This document shows, piece after piece, positions 154 to 9,893 of a stretch of DNA of 24,000 bases. This stretch comes from Acinetobacter sp. c1-l78 (lineage in GTDB: Bacteria; Pseudomonadota; Gammaproteobacteria; Pseudomonadales; Moraxellaceae). Every line of letters begins with the position of its first letter. Positions within the stretch are counted from its first letter, which is position 1. Made by a program: the position numbers and the translations under genes. The notes under the pieces are model-generated. The model was not told the DNA's origin, searched no databases, and saw only the letters and a program-made list of their open reading frames with translations. Location: positions 1-24,000 of the forward strand of contig NZ_JBHFHK010000014.1 in assembly GCF_041928215.1 (NCBI RefSeq), in the 5' to 3' direction.

Positions 154-549
154 CTAAATTAGTCTACGCGAAGAGTTTAGTGAGGATGGGTCTAAGATTG
201 TTTTTTCGCCCGAGGATTTAATTTCTAGCTCTATTGACGTTGCATCCTTTTGGATTTTCAAATCGAACATGTCTCTATTTCTAAAGTCATCGCTTCTTAT
301 TTTATCATATTCAATAAGAAATGGTGAAACTCCGGCAATCTCTTGCAGCAAGTATTTCTTGACGATATTTTTTGCCAGATCTCCAAGGAAAATATTCTCA
401 AACCGCTTATGAGGGAATCGCCCTTGCCAAGTATCTGCCGTGTGGTTCGCCTTCTTTAAAGCAGTGCTTTTTGCCCAATTTATTTCTGCAGGCACATCGG
501 CGACAGTGTATTTCTCTACTAGCTTTCCGTTGTTTAACTTGATTCTCAT
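154..549 (-). CDS. Hypothetical small protein (131 aa) with a PD-(D/E)xK-like nuclease motif, possibly 3'-truncated
   Basis: This is track ORF 154..618, whose listed start at 618 is a TTG. The internal ATG at 549 is preceded by AAGGGA with a 5-nt spacer, so I use it as the start. The motif DMFDLKIQKDATSIELEIKSS fits D-x(12)-E-x-K. GC is about 40%, unlike the adjacent res gene. The product call is weak. Confidence 0.4.
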   Translation of the reverse strand: MRIKLNNGKLVEKYTVADVPAEINWAKSTALKKANHTADTWQGRFPHKRFENIFLGDLAKNIVKKYLLQEIAGVSPFLIEYDKIRSDDFRNRDMFDLKIQKDATSIELEIKSSGEKTILDPSSLNSSRRLI

Positions 550-655
550 GATTTCCCTTTGTGAAACACAATCATTTTCCGCCGAAGAAATGCCTCCTGC
601 AACTGCGGAGGCAATCAAGGCTTAGATTTTTCTGAATTTCCTAAGATGCCGGTAT

Positions 656-3600
656 CTATTGTTTGACCAACTCCATAAGTCGGCCAAAGCTATCCACTAC
701 GTCATACTTCACATTTTCAGGTGAGTGGCGACGGTTCATCTCATCGAAAAACTTGCGAGCGCATTTGATCTTGGTTTTCTCGATCTCACGCAGATCCATC
801 GAGGACATCGATCCTTTGGTTTCTGCGACGAAGTAGATGTGCTTCACCGCGCCTTCCTTAAACGAGATGGCCCAGTCTGGGTTGTAGTCGCCGACCGGTG
901 TCGGGATCAAGAAACCGCGCGGCAACTTGGCATACACGACGACCTCAGTGCTGGCCTCCAAAGCCTCCGCAAAATCGCGCTCTGGCTTCGATCCGGAATC
1001 CGGCAGCACGAAGTCGTAGATGTGGTGTCTGGGCGTCTTGACTGCGTTGCTGAAGTCCTGCTTGGTTTGTCCGGCAGTGAAGATGTCTAGATCGAACTTG
1101 TCCTCAACCGGATCGTAGGCCAGATGCTCGATGATGACGGTGGCTTTCTGCTCGTTGATTAGGCGTATCGCCTCGGCAATGAAGCTCTCTGGATTAGTCT
1201 TGAACTGCGTGAATACAGCGGTGCTGAGCCCCTTGAGGATTTCGGTCACCGTACGCCGTGTCAGCAGGGTGCCTTCTGCAAGTTTTCCGATCAGGTCATA
1301 CTTGACCCCTGAATGGATTGAAACGCGGTTAGTTTCCGTCTCAGAGTCCTTCAATTCAAAAGCTTTGCCGCCCTTGATCCCATCGTAGGTCACAGCGGCT
1401 GCCTGTTCACCGTGCTGGATGGTGTACTGCAACGGGGTCACACGAAGCCCTGCATCTTTGTCGTTGAGTGTCTTGACCGCTTTCTGCACCAGCTCGTCGG
1501 AGTTGAAGTCGACGCTGTACGCCGCTTTACGGTTGATCCGATTCCAAAGCTCCTTGAACTCCTGCTTCTCAAAGTTGGCGTTTAGCGGGTTCTTCTTGGG
1601 CTTGCGGTCGTCACCAATTTCGGGCAACAGGCTCTCGCTGAAAACACTGTCAATCAGTTTGAACACCTGCTCGGCATGTGGTGCCAACTCGGGGGGCAGC
1701 GCAGCCAGCGCGCCGTCTTTCTTGGCCTCGTGGTACGCGGTGGTGATGCGATCTGCGTCGTCGGTGTAGTCGTGCTTGAGCAGGTACTTGTAGATCTGCT
1801 TAGCGAGTTGCGGTGTGACCTCGACATCACCAGTCGCTGTCTTCAGAACTTTGCCGGTGAAGTAGGCCTCATTCGCCAAGCGCGGACGCGCCGACAGCGA
1901 CTCGCTGATGTCCTTCTGCAGCGCCGCTACGAAGTCCTTGTAGCTCTCGCTGGCCACCACAGTCAGCACGTTCACTTCGTGTACCGTGGCCGGGTGATCC
2001 ATCCTGTCACCGCTTTGGTTGACGGACAGTCGCAAGCCACGTCCCACTTCCTGGCGGCGGGAAATTGTGTTGTCACTGTGCTTGAGCGCGCAGATCACAA
2101 ACACGTTCGGGTTGTCCCAGCCTTCACGCAGGGCAGAGTGCGAGAAGATGAAGCGCACGGGCTCTACGAACGACAGCAACCGCTCCTTGTCCTTGAGGAT
2201 CAGGTCGTAGGCGTCTACGTCGTCAGAAAGTCCCGCGTTCTCGCCACGCGCTGCGACCTTTCGGTCGGCCAGCCGTTTGCTCTTCTTGTCGATGGAGAAA
2301 TAGCCGCTGTGCGTTTTGTCGGCAGAAATCCCTTTGAGGTATTTGACGTACGGCGTCTCATCCAGCTCCAGCACCTCGTTGAGGTAGAGCTGGTACTCCT
2401 CCTCGAAGATGCGGGCGTACTCACCTTTTTCGTCGGGCTGCGAGTAGTCTCGGTACTTGACCACTTCGTCGATGAAGTAAAGCGTGAGCACCTTCACGCC
2501 TTGCTGGAACAGCGCCTGTTCCTTGTCGAAGTGCGCCTTTATGGCCTCTCGGATCTGTATGCGGCGCAGCGCGGCCTCGGTCACATCACCAGTCGCATCC
2601 CCGACGGTGAGCTCAACGCCATTGGTGAAGCTCAGGGTGTCGGAGTTGGCGTTGATATCGGCTACGACAAATCCATCTCGGTACTGATCGAGCCCGTTCG
2701 ACAGATCGAACAAGTTGTCGCCTTTGGAGAGCTTCCTCACTACCCGCTTGATGTTGCCACCCGCCAGTTTTTGCTCGAACTCCACACGCGCCTCTGGCGG
2801 CTTCTTGCTCGAAATCTCGATGGACTGCAGGTACAGATAACCCGCCGTGCCCGCTAGCCCCTTCACCGCGATGCCGCGCACGGCAATTTTTTTCACCAGC
2901 TTCTGGTTGTAGGCGTCCAGCGCATCGAGACGGTGGATCTTGTTGTGCGTAGTCTTGTGGGTGGCCGAGTAGCGCAACACCATCAACGCCTTGAACTCCT
3001 CCAGCGACTTCAGCGTCTCCTCGCCTTCCATCTTCTGAGGCTCATCCAGGATCAGGATCGGGCGGTTGGCGCTGATCACGTCGATGGGCTTGCGCGACTG
3101 GAAGTCGTCCAATTCTTCGTAGATCCGGCGAGCATCTTTACCAGTAGCATTAAAGACCTGGACGTTGATCACCATCACGTTGATGCCCGCATCCGAAGAG
3201 AAACTCTCCAGGTGGTGCAGCTGCTTTGAGTTGTAGATGAAGAAGCGTGCCTTCTTGTGATAAGTCTCCAAGAAGTGCTCGGCGGTGATCTGCAGCGACT
3301 TGGCCACGCCTTCACGGATGGCGATGCTGGGTACCACGATGATGAACTTGCTCCAGCCGTACTGCTTGTTCAGCTCGAAAATGGTCTTAATATAGCAGTA
3401 GGTCTTGCCCGTGCCCGTTTCCATCTCGATGTCGAGATTGACCTTGGCCACCTTGGTCTTGACCAGTGCGTCCGACACGGGCAGATTCTGGCCGTGCTGC
3501 ACGGCTCGGATGTTGTCGAGCAGCGCTGTTTCCGACAACGTGAAGTCGGCGTTGCGGAATGCGGCTTCCCTTTCCGCTGCAGCTTCAGGCGAAGCGGCCT

Positions 3601-3763
3601 CCAGCGCGAGCGCCGCTTGCGGGCTCGCTGGGGCTGCTTTCTGGCTGCCTGGATCGAGCCGATAGCGAACGCCGCCATGATGCGGAACCTGTCCCTTGAA
3701 ACAGTCCACTACTGCCTGCACGGCCGCCGTCTGGTAGGCCTGCGTCTTGAATTTCAACTTCAT
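656..3763 (-). CDS. res: Type III restriction enzyme Res subunit (SF2 helicase/translocase with C-terminal PD-(D/E)xK endonuclease)
   Basis: 1035 aa. Walker [10 protein letters not shown] lies at GTGKT = 3401-3415. Motif II LILDEPQ lies at DEPQ = 3035-3046. Motif VI is [10 protein letters not shown]. The C-terminal nuclease motif is NPDW...FVAETKG (PD at 875-880, ETK at 815-823). The ATG at 3763 is preceded by GAGGAGG, and the gene starts 10 nt after the mod stop. Confidence 0.9.
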
Positions 3764-3773
3764 CGCCGCCTCC

Positions 3774-5654
3774 TCAAATGCATTTCACTTCGGTTGCAGG
3801 CGACAAGAGCTTGAAAATCTGCTCCACATTGATTTTGACCGCACTGTCCTTGAAACCTGCATCGCGGAACACCACGCGCAGTGGCTGTCGCTTGGCAAGC
3901 TCTTTGACAAAGGCCTCATCAATACCGCCATGCGCATCAAAACAGGCGGCTAATGCATTTTCATCAACAAAGAACACTTCCTTGTCCTGCATGGTTTCTT
4001 TGGTAATTGGCAGCGCCAAGTCAACGCCCCAATCGAGCATCACCTGGAACAGCAGGTCTTCCGCCGTGCGGTCAGGCTTGATGTTGTCAACCAATAAGTC
4101 AAGTTGATCTTTTTCGATTTCGTCTGGGCGATAGTAAACATCCGCCAAATTCGACGAATCGATTTTTAGAACCCGAAAGCCAAAATCGAATACTCCAGCT
4201 GCCGCTTGGTGTACGGTTTTTCCAGCTCGTCTAATTCTCTCCTTTGAGATTTCTGCTATGGTCAAAGGAAGATTATTTTTCGATAGGAAGTCGACCGCTG
4301 GCTTATGCTCCTTCTTGGCTCCGTCAAGCGGCTCTGGTATCTGAATGCCAATCAATTTCAGATTCTTCCCATACTCGAAAGCTGCTTGGAATGTTGATCC
4401 GGAGCCGAGGAAAAAATCAAGGACAACATCTCCTTCTTTGCAATTCGCAATCGCCATCAAATTGCGAATAAGCTTTGGAGGCTTCGGGTTGCTGAATGTG
4501 TTTTTGGTTCCATCCATCAATTCGGTCAGCACCGAATTCCCCTCCTGGTTATGGCCAAATTGCTCATGGCTCCACCAGTTTGTTGCGCATTGACCCTCCT
4601 CTTCGCGCTCGAATTTAAAGTATTTTTTACGCGGAGATCCGTTCCCATTATTTGGGAAGATAATTCTATTGTCTTCAAGAAGCTTCTTGTAGGTGGCTTC
4701 TTCTCCCATCCACTCATCATCAAGACGGTTTCCGGTAGGGGTGACAATTGTGTATCTTGAGCCACTTTGATCGCTGCCCACTTTCCAAGGCTTAGATGCC
4801 CAATCACCTCGTGGGTCGTTGTCTGGGTTCGAAAAAGCTCCCGTTAGTTCGACTTTACCCACCCCGGCAGCTTTGTAGACCCATTTGTCTTTTGCGTAAG
4901 CAAGGATGTGCTCAGCGACCAGACCAATCATTTTGGTTGGGTCGTTCGGTTGATTGCTGCGGCGGCGCCAGTGGATGTGCCCTTCAAAGTTATCTCTTCC
5001 AAAAATCTCGTCGCAGATATTCCGCAGGTTTGCAACTTCCTCGTCGCCGATGGATATAAATATCAATCCATCATCTCTAAGAAGATTTCTGGCGAGCTTA
5101 AGTCGGGAGTACATCATGCTAAGCCAGTCCGAGTGATATCGCCCGCTGCTGTCTGAATTCAGTATAAGACGAGCGCCAGCTTCGTCTCTCTGGTTTGATC
5201 GCGCAAGATAAGCAGATGTATTTTCGGCGAAGTCATCTTCGTAAATAAAATCATCTCCTGTGTTATAGGGAGGATCAATATAGATCATTTTAATTTTGCC
5301 GAGATAAGACTCCTGAAGCAGCTTTAGTCCGTCCAAGTTGTCTCCCTCAATGAACAAATTGCGCGTTTCGCCGAAGTGCAAGCTCTCCTTGATATTTGGT
5401 CTTAGCGTCTTCGCGATGGGGGCGTTAGCAGCGAGTAGAGCCTCTCGTTTCCCTGGCCAGTTTAGGTGGTAGCGCTCTTGCGGACCTTCAGTAATCGACT
5501 CGGCCAACTCCTGTTTCAATTGGTCGAAATCGACGGCCAGCGTCACGCTTCCATCTTTACCCTTGGCTTCCGTCACGCAACCCGGAAACAGATCGCGAAT
5601 GCGTGCGATGTTTTCTTGCGTGAGGTTGGGTGAGTGCATTTTGAGTTTGGTCAT
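3774..5654 (-). CDS. mod: Type III Mod subunit, beta-class N6-adenine (or N4-cytosine) DNA methyltransferase
   Basis: 626 aa. Catalytic motif [12 protein letters not shown] has DPPY at 5265-5276. It precedes the AdoMet motif [10 protein letters not shown] at 4392-4415, which is the beta-class motif order. A long variable region lies between the two motifs and is the putative TRD. The gene sits immediately upstream of res on the same strand. Confidence 0.9.
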
Positions 5655-5694: not shown

Positions 5695-6393
5695 TCAGCG
5701 GGTTAATTGTTCAAGCTCAGATTTCAATTGCCGCAGGGTTGCGTTGATTTGAACCTTGCGGTTGAATTGTTTTTCCTTAGCTAATTTTGCCTGTGTTTTT
5801 TCAATTTCACGCTGCTTGGCTTGTGCCCGTTCAATGCGCGCAATCCAGTCGGACAAGGCCTCCTGTGGACGTGCTGGCAACGGCATTAAGCCTTGCAGCA
5901 GGACGGCGTACAGGTGGGCCATGTCGAGGGCCACCGGCATAGCCGTACGGGCAGTTGCCGCAGGCATCCAGTCGCTGGTGAAGTAGCTGGATAGCACCCA
6001 GCGACTGGCATCGGCTTCGCTCGGGCGCTTGTAAGCCGCCACTACCTGCGTTTTCGCCTGATCGCCCTGGCCTTGGTGTAGTTCAAACATGATCGGGAAC
6101 TGCACCGCGCCATCAATGCAGCGGAGCACGTCTTCGTGCAGCTCGGTGGACTTGAGCTGGATGCTGAAAATCTGGATTTCCGGCACACCGGGCCGCGCAG
6201 GCAGGTTGATCGTCTCTGGGGCGAGCTTGTACTGCCAGACGATCTGCTCGACCTGCTCGACGAACAGTTCCTTCAGCCGGGTGTTGGCCCCGCTGTGCTC
6301 ATAGATTTTGTTCTTGGGCAGCACGCGCCCGAAAGCAGCTTGCTTGGGGTAGGCGATCAGCGCTGTTTTTTTTGTGGTCACTCCTTGACTCAT
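5695..6393 (-). CDS. DUF4391-like protein of unknown function (232 aa)
   Basis: The track ORF 5695..6606 is trimmed to the ATG at 6393. That ATG overlaps the helicase stop (ATGA, 6390-6393) and has GGAGG 4 nt upstream. The sequence MSQGVTTKKTALIAYPKQAAFGRVLPKNKIYEH...IVWQYKLAPETINLPA...EIQIFSIQLK...VLRCIDGAVQFPIMFEL matches my recollection of the DUF4391 family pattern. The C-terminal ~45 aa are K/E/Q-rich and look like a coiled coil. Confidence 0.7.
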   Translation of the reverse strand: MSQGVTTKKTALIAYPKQAAFGRVLPKNKIYEHSGANTRLKELFVEQVEQIVWQYKLAPETINLPARPGVPEIQIFSIQLKSTELHEDVLRCIDGAVQFPIMFELHQGQGDQAKTQVVAAYKRPSEADASRWVLSSYFTSDWMPAATARTAMPVALDMAHLYAVLLQGLMPLPARPQEALSDWIARIERAQAKQREIEKTQAKLAKEKQFNRKVQINATLRQLKSELEQLTR

Positions 6394-9300
6394 CCTGCCT
6401 CCTGAATCACGAGGAAGCTGATGAGTTCGAAGTCGTCCAGGCCGGAGATGGTGTCTGTCAGTGCTGTGGTCTTGCCACCGCTGAACAGGCTGTCCAAATC
6501 CTTTTCTTCCGTCACCTCGATCATCGAACGGATGGACTTGCCCAACAGGTCGGAGTACGGCTGCATCCGGCGGCCATCCGCCGTTTCCTGATTGAAGCGC
6601 TGGCACACGTCGACGATGGGTTTGTCCTGGCCCTTGCAGCAGGTACGCACTAGATCGAGTAGGCGCTTAACCTCGGTGTGATCATGAATGACCTCTCCCT
6701 CGCGGTTGATGTAGACGAGGTAGTACGGATGCAGGCGGTTGTGCTGGTTGAGGCTGATCCCAGCATTGCGATTGCGCAGCGTGAAGATCGTGCCCGGCCG
6801 CAAGCCCATCTCAGGTCTGGCGGGAACGACGGCGTGCATCCCGTTGGGCACATTGCTCAGTTCGCCCTGGGCTTTGACGTAGTTGAGCAAATCCATGCGG
6901 AAGTCGTTGAGGCCCAGGTCGGTGATGGAGACACCGGTCTTTAAATCCTCCAGCTCGATGACTTCCTCCTGCAGGCGACGTAGTTGTTCCTTGCGGTATG
7001 ACACGTCGTTGGCCTGCGCAGACAGCACGTTGTCGTCACCTGTGGCGGTCACGTCAGCGATCATCATTCGGCTCTCGACGCGCTCTTTGAGGTTGATGTA
7101 CTCGTCGAGCGAAATGTCGGGCCAGTAGTTGACCAGCTGGATGCTGCTATTGGGCGAGCCAATGCGATCTATGCGCCCAAAGCGCTGGATGATGCGTACT
7201 GGGTTCCAGTGGATGTCGTAGTTGATGAGGTAGTCGCAGTCTTGTAGGTTTTGGCCTTCGGAAATGCAATCGGTGCCGATCAGCAGGTCCACCTCGTGCG
7301 GCTCGTCTGGCAGTATCAACGCCTTCTCTTTAGAGCGAGGGGAGAACAGGGTGAGCAGTTCCTGGAAGTCATAGTTGCGCTTCTGAGTTTTGCTCTTGAT
7401 GGTGGACTGCGGTGCCCCCTTGCCGGTGACCTTGGCGGTGTGGATGGCGAGCGTAGCCAGCAGCTCCGGCGCAAGGTTGGCGTACAGGTAATCAGCGGTG
7501 TCAGCAAAGGCTGTGAAGATCAGCACCTTCCTGTTGCCGGGGTTGATTGGGTTTGCAATCTTGCCGAGCAGTTGTGCTTTGAGGTGCTGCAACTTGGCGT
7601 CGTCCTGCGGCGTGATCTTGTTCATCGAAGCCAGCAAGGCATCGATGACCTGTAAGTCCACCTTCAGTTCGTGCTCCCAGGACGGTAAGTCCATGTCGGC
7701 GAGGCTGATCTTGATCTTGCTGCCGATCTCGCCGATCTCGCCGATCTCGTCGCCAGGCATTGGCAGCTCATCGTCCTCTGCATCCAGCACTTCCAGCACT
7801 TCCGTGAGGTCCCCCACCGTGACCGCGCCGCCGGATTGATTGAACGCAGCGATCTTTGCGAGGGTGGCTTCGTTGTTGGCCCGCAGCGATTGCAGCGTTA
7901 GCCGGAACGACTGCACCGAACTTTCAAGCCGTTTGAGCAGGTTGACCGTCATCAGGGCCTGCAGGCTCTTTTCGCGGTCGGCTTGGCGCAGCGTGCCCTT
8001 GCCGCCTACCTTGGTGTCGTAGATCTCCTCGTACTTCTTCAGACGGCTGGGCAGGATGTAGCTGATGGGCGCATACACGGCCAGCTTGAGCAGTGAGAGT
8101 TGCTCGAAAATTTCATTGAAGCCCAACACATCCGACCGCTCGGTCAACGGGCAGTGAAACGACAGCGGTTTGCGGCGCTCCGGAAATTGACCGATGTCCT
8201 TGGTGTCGTAGAAGGTCTGGATGTGCTTACGCGAGCGTGCGATGGTGACGCTGTCCAGCAGTTCGAAGAAGTCGAAGTCCAGTGAATCGAGGATCGCACG
8301 CGCGGTACGTTCTTCCAAGGGGAGCTTCGACCACGCGTTGAACGCTGCTTGTGCGCCTCGGAAAATTTCCTCGACGCTTCTGTCCGTGCGCAGCTTTTTT
8401 GTGAGGTTTTCGGAGTTGCCTTCGTAGGCCAGGGCCAGTTGGTTGCGCAAGTCAGTAAAGCGGTTGTTGACTGGCGTGGCCGACAACATCAGCACCTTGG
8501 TCTTGACCCCTTCTTGGATCACCTTGCGCATCAGCTTCTGGTAGCGGGTTTCCTTATCCTTGTAGGCGTCGTTATTGCGGAAGTTGTGCGACTCATCGAT
8601 GACGACGAGGTCGTAGTTTCCCCAGTTGATTCGGTTCAGCGGCGTACCGAAGGACTCGCCGCTGGTGCGGGACAGATCCGTGTGGCAGAGGACGTCGTAG
8701 TTAAACCGGTCGCGGGCGAAGATGTTGGTCTTGAGGTTGCGGTTGTAGTTCAGCCAGTTATCCGCGAGCTTCTTGGGGCAGAGCACCAGCACTGACCGGT
8801 TGCGCAGTTCGTAATACTTGATGACGGCCAGTGCGGTGAAGGTCTTGCCCAAGCCGACGCTGTCCGCCAGGATGCAGCCGCTGTAGGTTTCCAACTTGTT
8901 GATGATCCCTGTAGCAGCATCCTTCTGGTAGTTGAACAGCTTGTTCCAGATTAGGGTGTCTTGGTAGCCCGTGCGGTCGTTGGGCAGGACGTCTTCGTCG
9001 ATGTCGTCGAGGAACTCGTTGAAGATGTTGTAAAGCATCAGGAAATAGATGCTCTCGGGTGAGTTCTCTTGGTAGACCGAGGCGATGTGCTCGCAAATCT
9101 GCACAGTCACGTCCTCCAGCTTTTCGGGGTCGTTCCAAATTTGATCAAATAGGCTCAGGTACGTGGCAGCAAAGAGTGCCTCGTCCATCTTGTTGACGAG
9201 GTTGGAAACCGCATTGCCTTGCTGGTACCCGAGATCGACAGCGGTGAACCCGTGCAGGGGCATGTAAGCCGTGTCGGTGCCGCCAGCCTGCACGCAGGCG

Positions 9301-9689
9301 AACTGCTGCATCGGCGCTTTGGTGCGGTTGCTCTTGAATTTGGCCTTGCGCCGTATCCACTCAGCACACTCCTTAGCCACCGCCCGCTGGGTGAGCTTGT
9401 TGCGCAGCTGGATTTCAAACTCGCTGCCGTAGAGGCTGCGCTCGCGGTCGAGCTTGGGGATGTGGAACTCCTTTCGCTCTTTGCGAATCTTGTCGGTGAC
9501 CTCGTTGGCAACAAAGGTGGGCGAGGTGAAGATAAAGTCCAGCTCGTCAATTTTTCCCAGCTCGGCTTTCAGCGCCTCGAAGGCGTACATCGAAAAGCAC
9601 GAGGCCGCGACCTTCAGGCGCGCGCCTGGCCGGAGGGTCTGCTTGAGATCGTCGCCAAGCAACCTGCTGATATTGTCGATCAGTTCCAT
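6390..9689 (-). CDS. SNF2-family (SF2) helicase-related ATPase with an uncharacterised ~250 aa N-terminal domain
   Basis: 1099 aa. Motif I ILADSVGLGKTFTA has GLGKT at 8841-8855. Motif Ia is VLVLCPKKLADNW. Motif II VVIDESHNFRN has DESH at 8586-8597. Motif III is LMLSATPVNN. Motifs IV-VI are KVLIFTAF, LIGTDCISEGQNLQ and HWNPVRIIQRFGRIDRIGS. I found no ATPase or nuclease motif in aa 1-250. Confidence 0.9.
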   Translation of the reverse strand: MELIDNISRLLGDDLKQTLRPGARLKVAASCFSMYAFEALKAELGKIDELDFIFTSPTFVANEVTDKIRKERKEFHIPKLDRERSLYGSEFEIQLRNKLTQRAVAKECAEWIRRKAKFKSNRTKAPMQQFACVQAGGTDTAYMPLHGFTAVDLGYQQGNAVSNLVNKMDEALFAATYLSLFDQIWNDPEKLEDVTVQICEHIASVYQENSPESIYFLMLYNIFNEFLDDIDEDVLPNDRTGYQDTLIWNKLFNYQKDAATGIINKLETYSGCILADSVGLGKTFTALAVIKYYELRNRSVLVLCPKKLADNWLNYNRNLKTNIFARDRFNYDVLCHTDLSRTSGESFGTPLNRINWGNYDLVVIDESHNFRNNDAYKDKETRYQKLMRKVIQEGVKTKVLMLSATPVNNRFTDLRNQLALAYEGNSENLTKKLRTDRSVEEIFRGAQAAFNAWSKLPLEERTARAILDSLDFDFFELLDSVTIARSRKHIQTFYDTKDIGQFPERRKPLSFHCPLTERSDVLGFNEIFEQLSLLKLAVYAPISYILPSRLKKYEEIYDTKVGGKGTLRQADREKSLQALMTVNLLKRLESSVQSFRLTLQSLRANNEATLAKIAAFNQSGGAVTVGDLTEVLEVLDAEDDELPMPGDEIGEIGEIGSKIKISLADMDLPSWEHELKVDLQVIDALLASMNKITPQDDAKLQHLKAQLLGKIANPINPGNRKVLIFTAFADTADYLYANLAPELLATLAIHTAKVTGKGAPQSTIKSKTQKRNYDFQELLTLFSPRSKEKALILPDEPHEVDLLIGTDCISEGQNLQDCDYLINYDIHWNPVRIIQRFGRIDRIGSPNSSIQLVNYWPDISLDEYINLKERVESRMMIADVTATGDDNVLSAQANDVSYRKEQLRRLQEEVIELEDLKTGVSITDLGLNDFRMDLLNYVKAQGELSNVPNGMHAVVPARPEMGLRPGTIFTLRNRNAGISLNQHNRLHPYYLVYINREGEVIHDHTEVKRLLDLVRTCCKGQDKPIVDVCQRFNQETADGRRMQPYSDLLGKSIRSMIEVTEEKDLDSLFSGGKTTALTDTISGLDDFELISFLVIQEAG
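7722..7748 (-). repeat. Perfect 9-bp tandem repeat x3 (gccgatctc on the + strand) inside the helicase gene, encoding (EIG)x3
   Basis: The sequence reads directly as gccgatctc gccgatctc gccgatctc. It translates to the GDEIGEIGEIGSK stretch of the helicase. Confidence 0.95.
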
Positions 9690-9692
9690 CAG

Positions 9693-9893
9693 TCACTTAC
9701 CCCCGAATCCTTGTTGGTCAGATTGGTAGCAATTCATTCGTCCAGGTCGCTGCGATGGAAGCGCCACGTGCCGCCTAGCTTGAAAGCGAGAAGCCTTGCC
9801 TTCGGCTGCGAGACGGTAGACGGTGCGCTTGCCAGCCTTCAAGTAAGCGGCTACCTCGTCCAGAGTCAGGATTTCACCTTCCAAGTCTGCCAT
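9693..9893 (-). pseudogene. Excisionase/MerR-like helix-turn-helix (HTH_17-type) DNA-binding gene, apparently frameshifted
   Basis: The ATG at 9893 follows AAAGGCGAG. The N-terminus MADLEGEILTLDEVAAYLKAGKRTVYRLAAEGK is a typical HTH. After K33 the read frame gives unrelated sequence. The +1 frame instead encodes LLAFKLGGTWRFHRSDLDE, the conserved wing, and then a TGA at 9734-9736. Confidence 0.6.

Follow-up and report, generated by a model that had tools for sequence, protein, structure and literature searches.

Positions 5695-9689 of the 24,000-nucleotide stretch of Acinetobacter sp. c1-l78 DNA analysed here (the window) carry a helicase gene and a DUF4391 gene that probably form the conserved accessory module, of two genes, within a type III-like restriction-modification (R-M) cassette of four, the motor and the DUF4391 protein acting as a unit that tunes the methyltransferase (Mod) and the restriction enzyme (Res) encoded beside them. 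The type III core and the phospholipase D (PLD) domain at the helicase's N-terminal end are known; what is new is the conserved pairing of a dead-nuclease motor with DUF4391, together with the fold of DUF4391 and a motif within it. The literature search found no study of DUF4391 (of its listed mentions, one is a table entry and one an apparent slip for DUF7941) and no mention of PF14335 or IPR025503; a search of the literature on SNF2 and type III systems found no description of the four-gene cassette. The SNF2-DUF4391 add-on lies outside any described type III system found. All five genes of the operon stand in one tight row on the minus strand, in the order helix-turn-helix (HTH), SNF2, DUF4391, Mod, Res:

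9693..9893, minus strand: HTH leader gene, excisionase/MerR-type HTH_17 (Pfam HTH_17, E 1.3e-6)
9689..6390, minus strand: helicase gene, 1099 amino acids (aa), SNF2 ATPase (Pfam, PADLOC)
5695..6393, minus strand: DUF4391 gene, 232 aa plus stop (PF14335)
3774..5654, minus strand: type III Mod methyltransferase (PADLOC MTase_III, E 4e-214, full length; Pfam N6_N4_Mtase)
656..3763, minus strand: type III Res, superfamily 2 (SF2) ATPase plus C-terminal endonuclease (PADLOC REase_III, E 0, full length; Pfam ResIII and RE_endonuc)

The last two genes are a type III pair: they are adjacent, co-oriented and full length, and the expected motifs are present in both, DPPY at 127 and FLGSG at 415 in Mod, and GTGKT at 117, PD at 962 and ETK at 981 in Res. 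The four large open reading frames (ORFs) of the cassette, helicase, DUF4391, Mod and Res, are all full length, with the catalytic motifs of the type III enzymes and of the motor intact. Canonical type III R-M systems (EcoP15I / EcoP1I, Mod2Res complexes) consist of mod and res only. The window cassette resembles them in its full-length Mod, with DPPY before FxGxG, in a Res that joins an SF2 ATPase to a C-terminal PD-(D/E)xK domain, and in the order mod then res, but it does not have their two-component composition, since a helicase and DUF4391 precede mod. The same is true of every related locus examined, where a SNF2 ATPase with a dead PLD domain and a DUF4391 protein are encoded ahead of mod. 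The window Res also falls below the cut-off of the NCBIfam type III Res equivalog, scoring 383.8 against 564.

Related loci were gathered from species genomes (80), from a sample of the window's phylum (20) and from metagenomes (2, retrieved using one distant query); none was found in the viral contigs searched. The order helicase, DUF4391, optional insert, Mod, optional insert, Res is the same in every one of 100 loci where the contig is long enough, and it holds down to 22-27% identity in DUF4391 and 42-44% in the helicase. Wherever the contig permitted checking, DUF4391 never occurs without a type III Mod and Res, and the four genes co-occur strictly. Within the sampled genomes of the window's phylum, DUF4391 is present in 22 of 401 (about 5%).

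Of the cassette's junctions, only the one between helicase and DUF4391 stays closed almost everywhere. It is interrupted in only 3 of 92 loci, whereas DUF4391 directly adjoins Mod in no more than 45 of 91, and Mod adjoins Res in 47 of 77. The start codon of DUF4391 in the window (ATG, 6393-6391) runs into the helicase stop codon (TGA, 6392-6390) and is preceded, four bases away, by AGGAGG:

6390..6403, minus strand: coupling junction (AGGAGG at 6403-6398, CAGG, ATGA)

The 92 related loci that could be scored comprise 78 with ATGA, 7 with GTGA, 3 with TGATG and 4 with a gap. The overlap is therefore of four nucleotides in 85 of the 92 and of one nucleotide in 3, in a set that includes the clade with only 22-27% DUF4391 identity, and in most loci the final helicase codons (IQEAG) contain the Shine-Dalgarno sequence. 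Compared across these sequences, the overlap lies far beyond chance expectation. Because it and the in-gene Shine-Dalgarno are conserved across loci, both translational coupling and use of the ATG at 6393 are supported. An earlier note, written from the letters of this DNA alone, had read the ATGA as a stop/start overlap that suggested roughly equimolar production, taking ATG 6393 as the start. The overlap is indeed there, with its AGGAGG upstream, and conservation speaks strongly for that start, while the ratio of the two proteins is not readable from sequence. A longer DUF4391 ORF beginning at GTG 6606 was discarded as not conserved, a start candidate at -217 being found in only a few loci. 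The rarely opened junction fits a helicase-DUF4391 unit; genetic linkage alone could also explain it.

The cassettes vary in what they carry between these genes. About half of the related ones hold cargo between DUF4391 and Mod (e.g. L064:10672-13374; L083:10687-16966). A recurrent cargo gene encodes a 900-aa UvrD-like helicase, its ATG overlapping the DUF4391 stop, and another example at this position is a HerA-like ATPase with two proteins giving no Pfam match. An insert of 1-2.5 kb separates Mod from Res in about a third of related cassettes, and inserts reach up to 6.3 kb. The window copy is the minimal form of the cassette, without cargo.

The helicase itself divides into four parts, the first of which includes the remnant of a nuclease motif:

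9090..9689, minus strand: helicase aa 1-200, inactivated PLD/HKD nuclease-type domain (BLAST to intact-HKD N-termini)
9243..9314, minus strand: HKD motif remnant, aa 126-149 (PMQ-QFACVQ...PLHGFT replaces LHGKIYHMD...GSSNFT)
8943..9089, minus strand: helical linker, aa 201-249 (predicted helices 195-208 and 211-227, low confidence)
7110..8942, minus strand: SNF2-type ATPase motor, aa 250-860 (Pfam SNF2-rel_dom, ResIII, Helicase_C)
6393..7109, minus strand: C-terminal region, aa 861-1099 (conserved, no recognised domain)

Residues 1-250 alone give no Pfam match, and HxK is absent from this region, the sole H.K of the whole protein lying at aa 702. The best model for the helicase is the PADLOC candidate 'HKD+Snf2' (C3a139, PDLC01075; E 1.7e-120), whose match begins only at aa 180 and extends through model position 947 of 948. 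When the genome sample was searched with this model, the top matches were the DUF4391-linked helicases, plus a few relatives unlinked to DUF4391. Three of these unlinked relatives bear the textbook motif LHGK(I/M/L)YH(M/I)D ... GSSNFT, in genomes without DUF4391, and the intact-HKD N-termini match Pfam PLDc_2 (best E 3.2e-9) and the RE_NgoFVII PLD domain (2.1e-8). Residues 1-200 of the window helicase, cut before the motor, align by BLAST to the three intact-HKD N-termini at E 6e-21, 8e-21 and 3e-8, the two stronger alignments spanning aa 3-199. The alignment places PMQ-QFACVQ under LHGKIYHMD and PLHGFT under GSSNFT, and every catalytic residue is replaced: His by Gln128, Lys by Gln129, Asp by Gln134 and Asn by Gly147. 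The segment LHGFTAVD was considered as an HxK..D remnant and rejected, since the alignment puts HGFT opposite the (S)NFT of GSxN. Of 88 helicase N-termini compared, the three without a DUF4391 link all have HxK(x4)D, and the 85 with such a link all lack it. Membership of the PLD superfamily is reached transitively, through the intact-HKD intermediates, and the catalytic HxK(x4)D...GSxN signature is missing. On these alignments, helicase aa 1-~200 are a PLD-superfamily homologue whose catalytic residues have been lost, and catalysis is not expected of them.

Is the dead domain on its way out? The mean pairwise distance of the helicase N-terminus is 0.129 vs 0.156 for the motor, which makes it the most conserved segment of the helicase, and it is 89-99% identical among the 120 best database matches, which come from many genera. 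These distances indicate that the dead PLD domain is not decaying and that purifying selection holds it at least as tightly as it holds the motor. The domain also contains a conserved basic insertion of about 40 residues at aa ~58-100, and Y215, L219, F223 and T240 of the following linker are conserved across clades.

The motor belongs to the SNF2 family, with 47.1 bits for PF00176 (cut-off 24.9) and 47.0 bits for PF00271 (cut-off 23.5). SNF2-rel_dom starts at aa 254, ResIII at aa 250, and Helicase_C covers aa 719-844. Motifs I, II, III and VI are intact (GLGKT 279, DESH 365, SATP 403, QRFGRIDRIG 835), and the PDB matches of the helicase are SMARCA5, RapA and Sso Rad54-like. Judged by its motifs, the helicase is an intact SNF2-type ATPase. 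The C-terminal ~240 aa gave no Pfam match, and a profile search of the PDB returned only a weak repeat-protein match; all clades conserve the region, and so does the intact-HKD relative of G116 described below. Related Swi2/Snf2 defence helicases are reported to carry, beyond the motor, a REase-like domain that is inactive and an alpha+beta domain (PMC12839542).

The earlier note had seen motor motifs starting only at about aa 255, a long extension after motif VI, and no recognisable nuclease motif in residues 1-250, where it suspected a degenerate nuclease or PLD-like domain. SNF2-rel_dom from aa 254 and an extension of about 250 aa agree with the first two observations; the missing Pfam match and HxK agree with the third, and the homology to intact-HKD N-termini, with the catalytic H, K, D and N all replaced, shows the suspicion to have been right. 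By that note's own yardstick some of the novelty is thereby removed, because the N-terminus aligns to a well-characterised domain, as a dead PLD.

The partner protein is a full-length DUF4391 (PF14335), matching profile positions 2-232 of 232 at E 4.3e-58 with 197.4 bits vs a cut-off of 29.9, from a family of 5464 clusters at 90% identity and 1494 representatives at 50%. Its AlphaFold2 (AF2) model is confident, with a predicted local distance difference test score (pLDDT) of 90.2 and a predicted template modelling score of 0.83, and resolves these parts:

5884..6360, minus strand: alpha/beta globular domain, DUF4391 aa 12-170 (AF2 secondary structure)
5698..5868, minus strand: amphipathic alpha-hairpin tail, DUF4391 aa 176-232 (AF2 pLDDT 93-97)
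5743..5775, minus strand: turn motif E207-N217, EKQFNRKVQIN (family consensus EKQFNRKVExN)

The model has strands at 20-25, 48-57, 73-80, 100-107, 114-124 and 132-139, helices at 27-34, 38-47, 87-96 and 158-167, and two long tail helices at 180-206 and 210-231. In the globular part P16 and K27 are invariant, and W53, E72, D94, P100, K122 and Y162 nearly so. Foldseek against the PDB and the predicted viral structures of BFVD gave nothing at E<=0.001 for this fold, and phmmer and profile searches of the PDB found no significant relative. The BFVD matches below significance cover ~50 residues at a root-mean-square deviation of 0.5-2.7 and look like generic helical segments, judged by length and deviation; low-probability matches to Brix/Imp4, RecJ-like and CD-NTase proteins were judged meaningless. 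As modelled, DUF4391 consists of a compact alpha/beta domain, its fold unrecognised, and, after it, a helical hairpin that is amphipathic.

Both tail helices, read by eye, show the heptad-like 3-4 spacing of hydrophobic residues, and in the monomer model the tail folds back as an intramolecular antiparallel hairpin. The mean pairwise distance is 0.284 for DUF4391 as a whole and 0.334 for the tail, its most variable segment. Within this variable scaffold sits a turn that hardly changes: in 106 sequences Q209, F210, K213 and N217 are invariant and E207, N211, R212, V214 and E215 are at least 90% conserved, and in 100 diverse representatives Q209 and N211 remain at least 90% conserved. Even the L025 protein, 27% identical overall, keeps the motif as ESQFNRKVQLN. 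Across these alignments EKQFNRKVExN, at the turn and the first turns of the second helix, emerges as the family's most conserved motif, and because it is so fixed inside a variable scaffold it looks like a putative binding site. The coiled-coil-like tail described in the earlier note thus survives in part: it is helical and heptad-like, but is an amphipathic hairpin with a near-invariant turn motif rather than a generic K/E/Q-rich segment.

Three proteins in which DUF4391 appears fused to something else were uninformative as Rosetta-stone fusions. Internal deletion gave rise to P0353, which unites helicase residues 1-531 with DUF4391 from residue 24 onwards, and to P0077, which unites DUF4391 1-210 with Res 370-550; the 490-aa tail of P0249 has no Pfam match. 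P0353 and P0077 show that decayed copies of the cassette are in circulation in metagenomes. Near the start of the window DUF4391 gene there is a run of eight A (T8 on the plus strand) at 6366-6373, in codons 7-10, the longest homopolymer in the operon. A single C>A substitution (Q8K) accounts for it, the closest relative, L045, having A6. Because other relatives do not conserve the tract, phase variation at this site is not a feature of the whole family.

Among known systems, the nearest to the window helicase are the HKD-Swi2/Snf2 effectors of Type-2 BREX-related (BR) systems (PMC12839542), together with the PADLOC candidate family. Type-2 BR systems combine an HKD-Swi2/Snf2 helicase with a small standalone alpha+beta protein that has no known homology and is a proposed reader (PMC12839542). 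The window pair shares with them the PLD-type N-terminus, the SNF2 motor, the conserved C-terminal extension and a small protein of unknown fold encoded beside the helicase, and its helicase is homologous in sequence to intact-HKD members (E 6e-21). Unlike theirs, the HKD residues of the window helicase are all replaced, and the partners differ: DUF4391 with a type III Mod and Res in the window, a DUF499 ATPase, DUF3780 and a large N6-methylase in Type-2 BR. Judged by an active HKD, DUF499 and DUF3780, the window operon is not of this type, and neither DUF499 nor DUF3780 has a match in it.

A related locus was found in G116 (L157, G116:C1, 7954-15237), where an intact-HKD PLD-SNF2 helicase of 1083 aa is followed, with a 4-nucleotide overlap, by a 353-aa protein and then by a 1053-aa methylase of the Eco57I/TaqI_C type; no Res lies beside the intact-HKD helicase. 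The 353-aa protein has no Pfam match, and the idea that it might be a distant DUF4391 was rejected at an hhalign probability of 1.9%. From its gene content, the G116 locus is likely a sister system in which the helicase keeps its own nuclease.

The remaining comparisons are more distant. Through its intermediates the window N-terminus is homologous to PLDc_2 and RE_NgoFVII, and so to single-HKD PLD nucleases (Nuc, the BfiI N-terminal domain, Zucchini/PLD6); unlike these it lacks HxK(x4)D and GSxN, has the basic insertion and is fused to a motor. Class 1 DISARM (DrmD, DrmMI) likewise brings together a SNF2 ATPase and an adenine methylase in a defence operon, and DrmD models match partially over the motor. 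The window helicase, however, scores 137.2 against a cut-off of 610 for the DrmD equivalog NF038317, and Pfam and PADLOC found no match to DrmA, DrmB (DUF1998) or DrmC among the operon proteins. The PLD protein of DISARM, DrmC, is the product of a separate gene, whereas the window has its PLD domain fused to the motor. With a DrmD score far short of the cut-off, and without DrmA and DrmB, the cassette is not DISARM.

How could a motor with a dead nuclease domain serve a type III enzyme? The ancestor may have been an HKD-SNF2 nuclease-motor sufficient in itself, like those described for BREX-related systems and those that still stand beside other methylases. Cleavage would then have passed, in the present lineage, to the PD-(D/E)xK domain of Res, and the PLD fold would have been retained for a non-catalytic job, most likely dimerisation or docking of DNA or of a partner. 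Single-HKD nucleases (Nuc, BfiI, Zucchini) act as homodimers, and since they work as dimers, dimerisation or docking is, by analogy, the most economical guess for the dead domain. DUF4391 would be co-translated with the motor and bind it, probably via the hairpin motif, and the resulting unit would tune or extend the action of Mod and Res on unmethylated DNA, for instance by loading, clearing or translocating on the target DNA, or through gating of the motor.

Several points weigh against this proposal. The related loci are kin, so that all counts among them overstate their independence. Both AF2 predictions, of helicase aa 1-260 and of DUF4391, are of monomers, which leaves the proposed binding of the two outside the models. 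The prediction for aa 1-260 is poor (pLDDT 55.6, from 48 rather similar sequences), and Foldseek of this model against the PDB gave nothing at E<=0.001; the highest TMq values went to PLD-family phosphatidylserine synthases (0.26-0.31, not significant). The top PDB matches of the family profile are PLD6/Zucchini at E about 1 (not significant), aligned on the GSxN...W segment, and in the poor model the strand and helix order fits the PLD layout by eye. The PLD assignment is accordingly one of transitive sequence homology and not of structure, because the model is poor and no Foldseek match is significant. Divergence of the globular part of DUF4391 follows that of the three helicase segments at rho 0.61-0.65 vs 0.28-0.39 for Mod or Res, as would suit a helicase-DUF4391 unit, but the same result would come from linkage alone in a linear cassette that recombines, so it carries little weight. 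This mirror-tree style correlation, being compatible with linkage decay along the cassette, was not counted as evidence of contact. Finally, the leader HTH gene is frameshifted in the window, and regulation of this copy, possibly its expression too, may be abnormal.

Three rivals rank below the accessory-module reading. Could DUF4391 work mainly with Mod and Res instead? It would then serve as an adaptor or specificity factor, as the earlier note proposed, and attach the SNF2 motor to Mod2Res or to DNA, with its variable hairpin helix matched to a variable Mod. The tail is indeed the most variable part of DUF4391 (0.334), its divergence follows that of the Mod N-terminus (rho 0.45) about as well as that of the helicase (0.39-0.42), and no DUF4391 turned up without a type III Mod and Res where the contig allowed a check. 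Adjacency alone, however, would yield the tail-Mod correlation, cargo of up to 6.3 kb parts DUF4391 from Mod in about half of the loci, and the turn motif is invariant although the target-recognition regions of Mod vary between loci, all of which makes this adaptor role rather unlikely. A somewhat more doubtful idea is that SNF2 and DUF4391 constitute a separate layer of defence or counter-counter-defence, sharing the operon and the methylation mark in the manner of the HKD-SNF2 effector with a DUF3780 reader that has been proposed for Type-2 BR systems; DUF4391 would gate the motor after reading modification status or detecting a phage inhibitor of Mod/Res. The helicase does belong to the PADLOC 'HKD+Snf2' family, intact-HKD relatives pair with other methylases and no Res, and HKD-Swi2/Snf2 helicases are accompanied by a small alpha+beta protein for which a reader role is proposed (PMC12839542). 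Against this, HKD is dead in 85 of 85 linked helicases, which leaves the pair without an effector of its own; the operon has no match to the DUF499 ATPase or DUF3780, and DUF4391 is unrelated to the small protein beside the G116 intact-HKD helicase (hhalign 1.9%).

The last rival starts from the leader gene and from the foreign look of the locus. Compared with intact relatives, the window HTH is frameshifted after about codon 33: the relative L046 reads ...AAEGKLPAFKLGGTWRFRRSDLDEWI... where the window reads ...AAEGKASRFQARRHVALPS..., and the L046 HTH runs ...AAEGKLPAFKLGGTWRFRRSDLDEWIAAKLTNKDSGASD, ending on the helicase ATG. A tblastn search with the window HTH gave a match split over two frames in relatives. 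With the frameshift the excisionase-type HTH loses its wing, so control of the operon may differ in the window copy. The cassette has a guanine-cytosine (GC) content of ~55-58%, in a window that elsewhere has roughly 32-45%, and is flanked at about 10.2-11.1 kb by IS3-type transposase fragments. Together with the A8 run that one substitution created at DUF4391 codons 7-10, a GC-rich block beside transposase fragments in a genome of roughly 32-45% GC and a broken HTH could mark a decaying relic of recent horizontal arrival, not expressed or not functional here. This is very improbable: all four large ORFs are full length with catalytic motifs intact, the helicase and DUF4391 are 98% and 94% identical to their closest intact relatives, and loss of a repressor-type leader is more likely to raise expression than to abolish it.

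Type III enzymes are the textbook case of an ATPase that lets two distant DNA sites communicate. Here such an enzyme is joined, in a large family that moves horizontally, by a second motor, one of chromatin-remodeller type with a conserved dead nuclease domain. A bolder and distinctly tentative version of the accessory-module reading is that the dead-PLD SNF2 motor and DUF4391 make up a new regulatory or sensor sub-complex that changes how the type III enzyme works, with the QFNRK hairpin turn as its docking site. If so, the enzyme might cleave without needing two head-to-head sites, clear phage DNA that is modified or coated with protein, or resist anti-restriction proteins, and the cassette, with its four components, would represent a class of its own among ATP-dependent restriction systems. 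What does the second motor contribute to restriction, what constrains the dead PLD domain, and what is the partner of the QFNRK hairpin? The answers could define a new class of ATP-dependent restriction and give DUF4391 a function.

Beyond the accessory genes, a 154-aa ORF (154-618, minus strand) lies directly downstream of res in low-GC sequence. It has no Pfam, PADLOC or NCBIfam match and is probably outside the cassette, because tblastn found it in none of 100 related loci. Two tandem mod genes are present in L118. When the window Mod (3774-5654, minus strand) is compared with the Mod genes of L045-L124, identity falls or breaks in mid-protein (roughly aa 225-390) while the ends are 55-80% identical, a sequence pattern that fits swapping of target-recognition regions between cassettes.

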